Positions 61,310 through 62,780 of a stretch of 64,000 nucleotides of DNA are shown piece after piece. The DNA is taken from positions 96,001 to 160,000 of the IMG/VR virus record IMGVR_UViG_3300025108_000015. One strand, 5' to 3'. Source of the stretch: a virus. How positions within the stretch are numbered: the stretch's first letter is position 1; every line of letters begins with the position of its first letter. The position numbers and the translations under genes are program-made. The notes under the pieces are model-generated. The model made no database searches, had not been told where the DNA came from, and saw only the letters and a list, made by a program, of their open reading frames with translations.

Positions 61310-61567
61310 ATGTCATACAAACGAGAAAAAAAAGTAAGAAAAGAACGTGAGGAGTTATTCCTATATGGTCATGCTAATGGTGTAAGGGTTATTAATAATA
61401 ACATTGAAGCAGCACTTAGAAAGTGGAAACGTATTATGAAAGATAATGGTGTAATTGACCTTATCAAGCAAAATAGGGAATACACTAAACCGACTACACG
61501 TAAACGTAAACAAATGAATGATGCTAGACGAGCTGATTGGGTCCGTAGACAACAAGAAGCAAGATAA
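61310..61567 (+). CDS. rpsU: ribosomal protein bS21 homolog
   Basis: VRVINNNIEAALRKWKR...GVI...REYTKPTTRKRK matches the bS21 core; ~20-aa N-terminal extension. Confidence 0.88.
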   Translation: MSYKREKKVRKEREELFLYGHANGVRVINNNIEAALRKWKRIMKDNGVIDLIKQNREYTKPTTRKRKQMNDARRADWVRRQQEAR

Positions 61568-61718
61568 TAGTAAACACTTTATCGTTTATTGTAAAATTTA
61601 CATACTTATTGTAAATTAATATCACTCCAATCTAATGAGTGATTCATATTATATTATTATATTCTATTAAGATTTAAAATAATCTTATTATCCAAAAGTT
61701 TAATTTAGGAGGTAACAA

Positions 61719-62780
61719 ATGAAATCAGATTTGTTAAAAGAAGCAATCGCCGATGCTAAAGCCGTAAAAGAAACTGCATTAGCAAACGCAAAAATGGCTC
61801 TCGAAGAGGCATTTACTCCAAAACTCCAATCTATGCTTTCTCATAAACTAGCTGAAGAGTTAGATGAAGAAGAAATCGAAGAAGACGAAATGGAAGAAAT
61901 GATGAAATCCGAAACGGATGACGAAGTTTCTGAAATGGAAGATGAAATGAAATCTGAAGAGGAAGAAATGGAAGAAGAGTTAGAATCAGATGAAGAAGAA
62001 GAGGTAGCTGATATCGCTTCTGACGAAATCGATTCTCACGAAGAGGAAATGCATTCTGAAGAAGAAGCTGACGAAGAAGCTGACGAAGAAGCTGAAGACG
62101 AAGCTCAAGTAGAAGATGAAGTAGAAGAGATGATGGATGAAGAGGAAGAAGATGAACTCGACCTTGAATCAGTAATCGCTGAACTTGAAGCTGCTATGGA
62201 AGGTGAAGATTTAGACGAAGAAGAAGTTGAAGAAACTGAAGAAGTTGAAGAAACTGAAAAAGTTGAAGAAGTAATGGAATCAGAAGAAGAAGTTGAAGAG
62301 TCGGAAGAACTTGACGAAGAACTTTCTTTGGAAGAAATCATTTCTACTTTGAAAGAAATGTCTGAAGAAGAAGAAGTTGAAGAAACTTACGAATCGGAAG
62401 AAGTTGAAGAAGTAGAAGAATCAACGGAATTGGAAGAAGCATACGCTACTATCGAGTCGTTGAGAGGTACTATCAATGAGGTAAACTTATTGAATGCTAA
62501 ACTTCTTTACACTAACAAGTTGTTCAGAACATTCGACTTGAACGAAGGTCAGAAGATGAAAGTCATCGAAAACTTCGATAGAGCTGAATCTTTGAGAGAA
62601 GTAAAATTGGTATTCGCTACATTGGGTGAAAACTTGAATGTTGCAAGAAAACCAAAAACAGTTGTAAAAGAATCACTAGCGTCTAAGCCTATGGCATCGA
62701 CTGCACCTAAGAAAGAAATCATTTCTGAAGGTAATGCTGTTGCTGATAGATTTAAGAAGCTTGCTGGTTTAATTAAATAA
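61719..62780 (+). CDS. gp22: prohead core scaffold protein
   Basis: Highly acidic coiled coil between the protease and capsid genes; AGGAGGT RBS. Confidence 0.88.
   Translation: MKSDLLKEAIADAKAVKETALANAKMALEEAFTPKLQSMLSHKLAEELDEEEIEEDEMEEMMKSETDDEVSEMEDEMKSEEEEMEEELESDEEEEVADIASDEIDSHEEEMHSEEEADEEADEEAEDEAQVEDEVEEMMDEEEEDELDLESVIAELEAAMEGEDLDEEEVEETEEVEETEKVEEVMESEEEVEESEELDEELSLEEIISTLKEMSEEEEVEETYESEEVEEVEESTELEEAYATIESLRGTINEVNLLNAKLLYTNKLFRTFDLNEGQKMKVIENFDRAESLREVKLVFATLGENLNVARKPKTVVKESLASKPMASTAPKKEIISEGNAVADRFKKLAGLIK

Follow-up and report, generated by a model that had tools for sequence, protein, structure and literature searches.

The window analyzed here, a stretch of 64,000 nucleotides, corresponds to bases 96095-160094 of a 172,976-bp IMG/VR virus record (IMGVR_UViG_3300025108_000015) that is about 90% complete. 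The G+C content is 35.6% and nearly all genes lie on the + strand. We focused on a gene encoding bS21, the ribosomal protein most often encoded by phages, and on the Shine-Dalgarno (SD) sequences preceding the virion genes around it. The phage is a marine, T4-like one, and the bS21 gene belongs to a head module of T4-type order, composed of the large terminase (starting at 54402), the portal (56050), the prohead protease (59462), bS21, an acidic scaffold (61719) and a gp23-like capsid gene (62811). Four genes of the module are the following.

54402..55976, + strand: large terminase gene, without an SD core (Terminase_6N in syntenic relatives)
56050..57900, + strand: T4-type portal gene, without an SD and with TATTTATA at 56004 (Pfam Portal_T4)
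59462..60100, + strand: prohead core protease gene (Pfam Peptidase_S77)
61310..61567, + strand: phage bS21 gene, 85 amino acids (Pfam PF01165 match)

The open reading frame at 61310-61567 encodes a divergent, phage-borne ribosomal protein bS21. It matches the Pfam family Ribosomal_S21 (PF01165) with 48.8 bits (E 5.6e-13, cut-off 27), residues 25-75 covering profile positions 2-53 of 55, and it also matches solved bS21 chains, so that the bS21 homologue proposed in the head module, on the same strand, by a first-pass annotation made from the sequence alone is confirmed. In the family alignment the K60-P61 hinge, R66 and A72 are invariant or nearly so, and the protein carries in addition a basic N-terminal extension of about 20 residues. 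The AF2 model (pLDDT 79.7) predicts helices at 32-46, 48-54 and 61-84, confident (>90) only for the C-terminal helix 61-84 and of low confidence for the N-terminal extension; a Foldseek search of this model against the PDB returned nothing useful (best E 0.12). Searching 50,697 phage records by tblastn with the window bS21 gave no match at E 1e-3, and no homologues of bS18 or bS6 were found in the phage record. The leader of the bS21 gene is A/T-rich and has no SD core, and the same is true of its relatives, in which an SD precedes the gene in 0 of 24 distinct cases, with a mean pairing energy of +0.2 kcal/mol.

On the contrary, many virion genes are preceded by an SD. All 11 SD motifs listed by the first-pass annotation are present at their positions, the early and metabolic genes that it had described as SD-less do lack one, as does bS21, and the exceptions it had conceded are real, portal and terminase being SD-less across relatives. 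Among the SDs are the following.

22916..22920, + strand: SD GGAGG of gene 22927-23289, in the baseplate/tail region
25223..25228, + strand: SD TAAGGA of the baseplate wedge gene 25235-27145
58776..58780, + strand: SD GGAGG of the 176-aa head gene 58788-59318
60092..60095, + strand: SD GGAG of the 325-aa head gene 60100-61077
61707..61713, + strand: SD AGGAGGT of the scaffold gene (61719-62780), the strongest of the genome at -11.5 kcal/mol
62798..62802, + strand: SD AAGGA of the gp23-like major capsid gene (62811 onward, running off the window)

We used our own list of 229 genes, in which the virion (late) region runs from 115.4 kb through the end of the record to 19 kb. PHROGs annotation gave no match for about half of 20 virion-region proteins and was dropped for defining gene classes; genes were therefore classed by region and promoter. 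Counted relative to the starts, the words GGAG, GAGG and AGGA are most frequent at -13 to -9, with 15 occurrences at -11 versus 1.7 expected, while control purine words have no positional peak. An SD core was found before 25 of 65 genes in the late region versus 24 of 164 elsewhere (odds ratio 3.6, Fisher p 1.5e-4). The enrichment persists when only genes of at least 150 aa are counted (p 0.007) or any alternative start is admitted; of 228 circular shifts, 11 give a late-versus-early difference as large as the real one.

We also looked at individual genes, counting over the distinct upstream sequences of the clade. The SD is present at nearly all orthologues of the scaffold (22/23), the capsid (24/26), the 176-aa head gene (20/23) and a 1724-aa fibre gene (20/20), at about half of those of the protease (12/25), and at very few of those of the portal (2/27) and terminase (1/26). 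The SD pattern follows the copy number needed per virion protein. Moreover, SD cores are kept at orthologous genes while the flanking bases diverge, which argues for selection. At the terminase gene, AGGTGAT (window 54393-54401) stands directly 5' of the ATG, though there is no core SD; the word corresponds to the 3' portion of the complete SD complement, set unusually close to the start.

Two classes of upstream motif recur in the genome, and examples of both, with the terminator that adjoins one of them, are given here.

38548..38577, + strand: example of the early-type promoter T[GT]G-N19-TATATTAG(TA)
61252..61259, + strand: late-promoter-like TATTTATA, 58 nt upstream of the bS21 start
61259..61295, + strand: intrinsic terminator, a 12-pair hairpin followed by a T run (terminator scan, RNA fold)

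The first class, T[GT]G-N19-TATATTAG(TA), occurs between genes about 20 times, chiefly in the non-structural half, and resembles the -33/-7 promoters of Bacteroidota; it was handled as early or middle. Some of these elements end merely 2-5 nt 5' of an ATG (for example at window 38570), so that some such messages may be nearly leaderless. The second class, TATTTATA, has 23 copies on the + strand of the genome, of which 18 are intergenic and lie 24-130 nt (mostly 24-60) upstream of starts. It stands before many virion genes, both here and in Flavobacterium phage immuto. It recalls the T4 late promoter and was handled as late, and we infer that it is a late promoter and that the bS21 gene of the window is expressed late. 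In this genome the first gene after TATTTATA has an SD in 11 of 20 cases, versus 1 of 17 after the early-type promoter. When the three near-complete genomes of the clade are pooled, the difference becomes 27/62 versus 1/50 (p 1e-7), the genes that come first after an early-type promoter having an SD in 1/20, 0/16 and 0/14 cases in the three genomes. A further start context is AAGTT-ATG, with 24 copies on the + strand and one on the - strand, often directly after a TAA stop (for example at window 2412-2419, 2763-2770 and 7032-7039); in these phages it may serve for coupling or as a signal for initiation.

The region upstream of bS21 combines a late-type motif with a terminator. The terminator scan found 1 site versus 0.2 expected, and the hairpin at 61259-61295 folds with -18.5 kcal/mol (z -2.9), its 5' foot directly abutting the TATTTATA motif. 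In relatives, bS21 is preceded by a 'GGTGTTTT...' tail. A transcript starting just past TATTTATA would be missing part of the 5' arm of the hairpin, and therefore the element may halt upstream transcripts yet let pass the late transcript of bS21 itself. This arrangement may insulate bS21, which would be transcribed solely from its own promoter. In metatranscriptomes of related phages, bS21 is expressed together with late structural genes (PMC9723584).

We asked how SD use varies with bS21 among related phages. Loci were retrieved via the bS21 family (58), the immuto capsid protein (80) and a fragment of Flavobacterium johnsoniae bS21 (35), and their head modules were compared with one uniform gene caller after removal of duplicates, giving 122 loci in 3 groups. 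The 57 loci with an extended bS21 (900 genes) have an SD at about 40% of genes and a ratio of observed to expected (O/E) internal SD words of 0.62-0.74. The 43 loci with no bS21 (643 genes) have an SD at 7.5% of genes and an internal O/E of 0.99. The third group, 22 loci (340 genes) with a short, host-like bS21 that has Tyr54, is similarly poor in SDs, with 3.2% of genes and an internal O/E of 0.95. The host-like phage proteins are 60-65 aa long, have no extension and show K-A-K/I-Y-I-Q around Tyr54; their contigs, which have a gp23-like capsid gene, measure 162-165 kb at a rated completeness of 52-55% and fit the huge phages of Chen et al., at about 300 kb judged by completeness.

Whole genomes gave the same picture. 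SDs precede 3% of genes in two complete bS21-less genomes versus 16-29% in four genomes with bS21, and after late motifs only 1/24 and 0/25 genes have one in the bS21-less genome G001 and the cultured Flavobacterium phage immuto, in neither of which bS21 was found anywhere in the genome. Inside coding sequences, SD-core words number 22-24 per kb in bS21-less genomes versus 5-8 in the four with bS21, and O/E against synonymous-codon shuffles is 1.07 versus 0.69-0.71 (z -11 to -16). This depletion is specific to AGGA, GGAG and GAGG, control purine words not being depleted, and the share of GGA among glycine codons falls from 61-65% in bS21-less to 19-29% in bS21-carrying genomes. Avoidance of internal SD-like words marks messages that are read by ribosomes with an accessible anti-SD. 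That this type of bS21 goes with SD-led late translation is well supported by the comparison, though unproven.

We then considered what in the protein could account for such an association. Residues 10-60 of F. johnsoniae bS21 (7jil chain z), which include K40-P41 and A52-A53-Y54, served as reference. Residues 30-74 of the window protein align on residues 10-54 without gaps, with K-P, R and A as anchors, so that P61 corresponds to P41, A72 to A52 and R74 to Y54, and the family alignment agrees.

61529..61531, + strand: codon of Arg74, the counterpart of Tyr54 of F. johnsoniae bS21 (gapless alignments)

The Arg that the first-pass annotation had placed at the position of the host Tyr is thus borne out, and the window protein lacks Tyr54, the signature of the anti-SD-sequestering bS21 of Bacteroidia type. 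Of 118 distinct sequences of the family, 70 have R in this column and 31 have Y, F or H. Three positions further on, the phage family commonly has an aromatic residue (W or Y), and the host protein has none.

That the exchange of Tyr for Arg is the sole cause was not supported: SD use is alike at loci with an aromatic residue at position 54, and the exchange is not the discriminating feature. Loci L066-L070 encode a bS21 75% identical to that of the window, with Tyr at column 54 and full synteny, and they retain SDs at the 176-aa head gene, the scaffold and the 1724-aa fibre gene. On the capsid tree they nest inside the Arg-type clade, so that Tyr looks secondarily regained there. Distant Tyr-type loci also have SDs (9/16 genes in L159, 10/20 in L161 and 3/6 in L157). 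As Tyr-type relatives, both close (L066-L070, L071) and distant (L157, L159 and L161), keep the same SDs, Arg74 as the sole switch was rejected; Arg74 is one candidate determinant, neither necessary nor sufficient across the family. Internal SD avoidance is somewhat weaker at aromatic-54 loci, with an O/E of 0.74 versus 0.62 at Arg/Lys-54 loci. The SD-rich subclade L062-L064 has Arg but lacks the N-terminal extension, and others combine the extension with Tyr. The net charge after the K-P hinge is +6 in the window protein and +3 to +4 in two solved Bacteroidia chains, but host-like phage bS21 is equally basic (+6), and charge was discarded as a discriminator. The columns that fully separate extended from host-like bS21 correspond to window residues I28, A34, K44, D45, V48 and D71, and from these no single determinant follows.

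A mechanism by which a bS21 could alter the reading of SDs has an experimental precedent. F. johnsoniae ribosomes sequester the anti-SD by means of bS21, bS18 and bS6, with Tyr54 of bS21 stacking on A1534 of the bound tail (PMC7797042). Both in cells and in vitro, strong-SD reporters yield 3-5 fold more when bS21 carries Y54A or lacks residues 43-64, while SD-less reporters are largely unchanged for Y54A (PMC9976891). The gain of these mutants makes release of the anti-SD a plausible mechanism here. In our interpretation, the phage bS21 would be a late product of a message without an SD, readable by ordinary SD-blind Bacteroidota ribosomes, and would enter the host 30S in place of, or beside, the host bS21. 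It would then fail to hold the 3' tail of the 16S rRNA in the bS21/bS18/bS6 pocket, leaving the anti-SD available. Abundant virion messages (scaffold, capsid, sheath, tube and fibres), with canonical SDs at -13 to -9, could in this way out-compete SD-less host and early phage messages, and no SD would be present at bS21 or at late genes whose products are needed in few copies (portal, terminase). The putative targets do carry the feature that such ribosomes would prefer, SDs being found on abundant late genes and absent at early-promoter genes. Replacement of host bS21 by phage bS21 has been proposed (PMC9976891, PMC6375957, PMC9723584), none of these papers tying bS21 to SDs on phage genes, and our full-text literature search found no paper reporting a link of phage bS21 to SD-led phage genes.

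Taken together, the idea of the first-pass annotation that bS21 is part of a ribosome-specialization switch kept its main elements (SDs on late abundant genes, an SD-less bS21 gene, absence of Tyr54), to which the comparison adds that the bS21 type tracks SD use, and lost the Arg-for-Tyr exchange as discriminator. We consider that the best explanation overall, and one we hold to be somewhat probable from comparative sequence data, is that a late, divergent phage bS21 frees the anti-SD and thereby favours SD-led virion messages. The wider proposition, that this family turns SD-blind Bacteroidota ribosomes into SD-reading ones late in infection and so provides a private translation channel for abundant virion proteins, appears to us evenly balanced.

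Because the reading supposes an SD-blind host, we also gathered evidence on the host. At record 68492-71449, 24.6 kb upstream of the window, lies the gene of a 985-aa protein with a type IX secretion (T9SS) sorting domain at its C-terminus (PF18962, 56 bits). The relative G002, the bS21-less G001 and Flavobacterium phage immuto have this domain too; it was not found in G003 or in phage Mel-JY01. The AAGTT-ATG context of this phage recurs in G002, G003, immuto and G001 and is not shared by Mel-JY01. In addition, the sister clade has been cultured on Flavobacterium (immuto). These features point, indirectly, to a Bacteroidota host.

Several observations weigh against the release of the anti-SD by the phage bS21. 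Loci with an aromatic residue at position 54 (nine, Tyr or Phe) have an SD at 38.8% of genes, versus 40.0% for Arg/Lys-54 loci (p 0.64), and the phage SDs are moderate, 4-7 nt, compared with the pairing stronger than -13 kcal/mol of the host rpsU circuit. A single well-supported branch of the capsid tree parts loci with bS21 from those without it, and one change explains all 99 rows; since no independent gains or losses of bS21 were found on this tree, the contrast amounts to one evolutionary event, and the host-like Tyr54 group adds just one further lineage. Internal SD avoidance has an O/E of 0.72-0.74 in early-class genes versus 0.68-0.70 in late-class genes. The difference is merely marginal, so that stronger avoidance in late genes was rejected, and avoidance in early genes is not predicted by a purely late switch. 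Phage Mel-JY01, with Lys at position 54, has been recorded on the cyanobacterium Microcystis and has SDs in both gene classes. Finally, GATC occurs at 19 sites in 173 kb versus about 550 expected (for example at window 15783, 28257 and 35485), and at 2, 0 and 0 sites in three other relatives with bS21, versus 513 and 578 in two bS21-less relatives; this split hints that the host populations of the clades differ. The loss of GATC suggests pressure from GATC-specific restriction in the hosts of the bS21-carrying clade.

The single branch, the avoidance in early genes, the GATC pattern and the SDs throughout Mel-JY01 would also be expected if the clade with extended bS21 simply infects bacteria, other Bacteroidota or other phyla, that already read SDs. 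SDs and internal avoidance would then mirror the host, and bS21 would be a supply of a loosely bound ribosomal protein of host type; that position 54 is basic, as in alignments of E. coli-type bS21, agrees with this. We regard such a host difference as possible, if rather unlikely. The T9SS sorting domains here and in G002, as in Flavobacterium phage immuto, speak against it, as does the AAGTT-ATG context shared with immuto and not with Mel-JY01. In addition, it does not fit genes behind early promoters that are practically free of SDs in three genomes (the 1/50 given above), nor the reported conservation across Bacteroidetes of the residues for anti-SD occlusion (PMC7797042).

A second alternative, which we find improbable, dispenses with the phage protein as the agent: ribosomes devoid of bS21, after shut-off or proteolysis of the host protein, would read the SD-led late messages, and phage bS21 would restore an essential N-terminal function or be a packaged basic protein of the head. 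In F. johnsoniae, ribosomes without bS21 do favour SD-led mRNA, and a phage protease directed against host bS21 has been speculated on by the authors (PMC9976891). A phage ClpP gene lies at window 20542-21171 (Pfam 104.6 bits), and ClpP is present in 4/4 genomes with bS21 and 0/2 without, which would suit a role in such proteolysis; yet this co-distribution rests on the same single branch of the tree. The position of the bS21 gene among prohead core genes would suit a packaged protein, and packaging has been suggested (PMC9723584). However, this alternative gives no account of why the type of bS21, extended or host-like, tracks SD use, and the N-terminal part of bS21 is essential in F. johnsoniae (PMC9976891). 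Lastly, that the GGAG-type words are chance purine runs or a transcript-processing signal, with bS21 an unrelated auxiliary gene, is very hard to maintain: upstream regions are indeed purine- and A-rich and many SDs have merely 4-5 nt, but the words peak sharply at canonical spacing, control words are flat, cores are conserved at orthologous genes while flanks change, and sister clades of equal base composition have none.

The closest known systems share parts of what we describe. The freshwater Bacteroidetes myoviruses of Chen et al. (2022, ISME Commun, PMC9723584) are predicted to infect Bacteroidetes and likewise have a bS21 gene in a T4-like head module with terminase, portal, protease and capsid genes, its transcription accompanying that of late genes. 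All 61 of their bS21 proteins are aromatic at position 54, whereas the window protein has Arg and the N-terminal extension of about 20 residues; the authors inferred that phage bS21 blocks the anti-SD like host bS21 and reported no SD analysis. F. johnsoniae bS21 (Jha et al. 2021, PMC7797042; McNutt et al. 2023, PMC9976891) belongs to the same protein family, and its mutants are the experimental precedent that loss of Tyr54 or of the C-terminus releases the anti-SD and raises SD-led translation (PMC9976891). The phage protein, known from sequence, would be a natural variant supplied in trans. In the host circuit, rpsU alone has a strong SD (PMC9976891), extremely so (below -13 kcal/mol), and is autoregulated; the phage pattern is the reverse, with a bS21 gene that is SD-less in every relative. 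The marine myovirus Pelagibacter phage HTVC008M also encodes a bS21, which has been suggested to take the place of the cellular one (Mizuno et al. 2019, PMC6375957), and one viral ribosomal protein of this kind was shown to enter E. coli ribosomes (PMC6375957). The HTVC008M protein is 54% identical to the bS21 of its own host, and no mRNA feature was linked to it (PMC6375957). In Francisella tularensis, alternative bS21 proteins give heterogeneous ribosomes with altered choice of messages, but there they are cellular paralogues in a gammaproteobacterium that uses SDs, with no unmasking of the anti-SD (PMC9578407).

In conclusion, published proposals on phage bS21 go no further than saying that it 'redirects' ribosomes (PMC6375957, PMC9723584, PMC9976891), and the sequence data presented here name a concrete target signal, the SD, together with a natural comparison, in which three related groups of T4-like phages differ in their bS21 status and SD use and SD avoidance differ in step. 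If the association is not causal, it would still mean that a phylum regarded as blind to SDs includes, or borders on, hosts that read them. If our interpretation is true, bS21 would be part of a viral ribosome-specialization switch whose target signal (the SD) and genomic footprint (internal SD avoidance) can both be read from sequence. Were the link causal, these phages would provide the natural counterpart of the Y54A and truncation mutants of F. johnsoniae and would illustrate how a virus can rewrite the rules by which its host selects start sites; this would also explain why Bacteroidota retain a canonical anti-SD, which phages would then be able to exploit.

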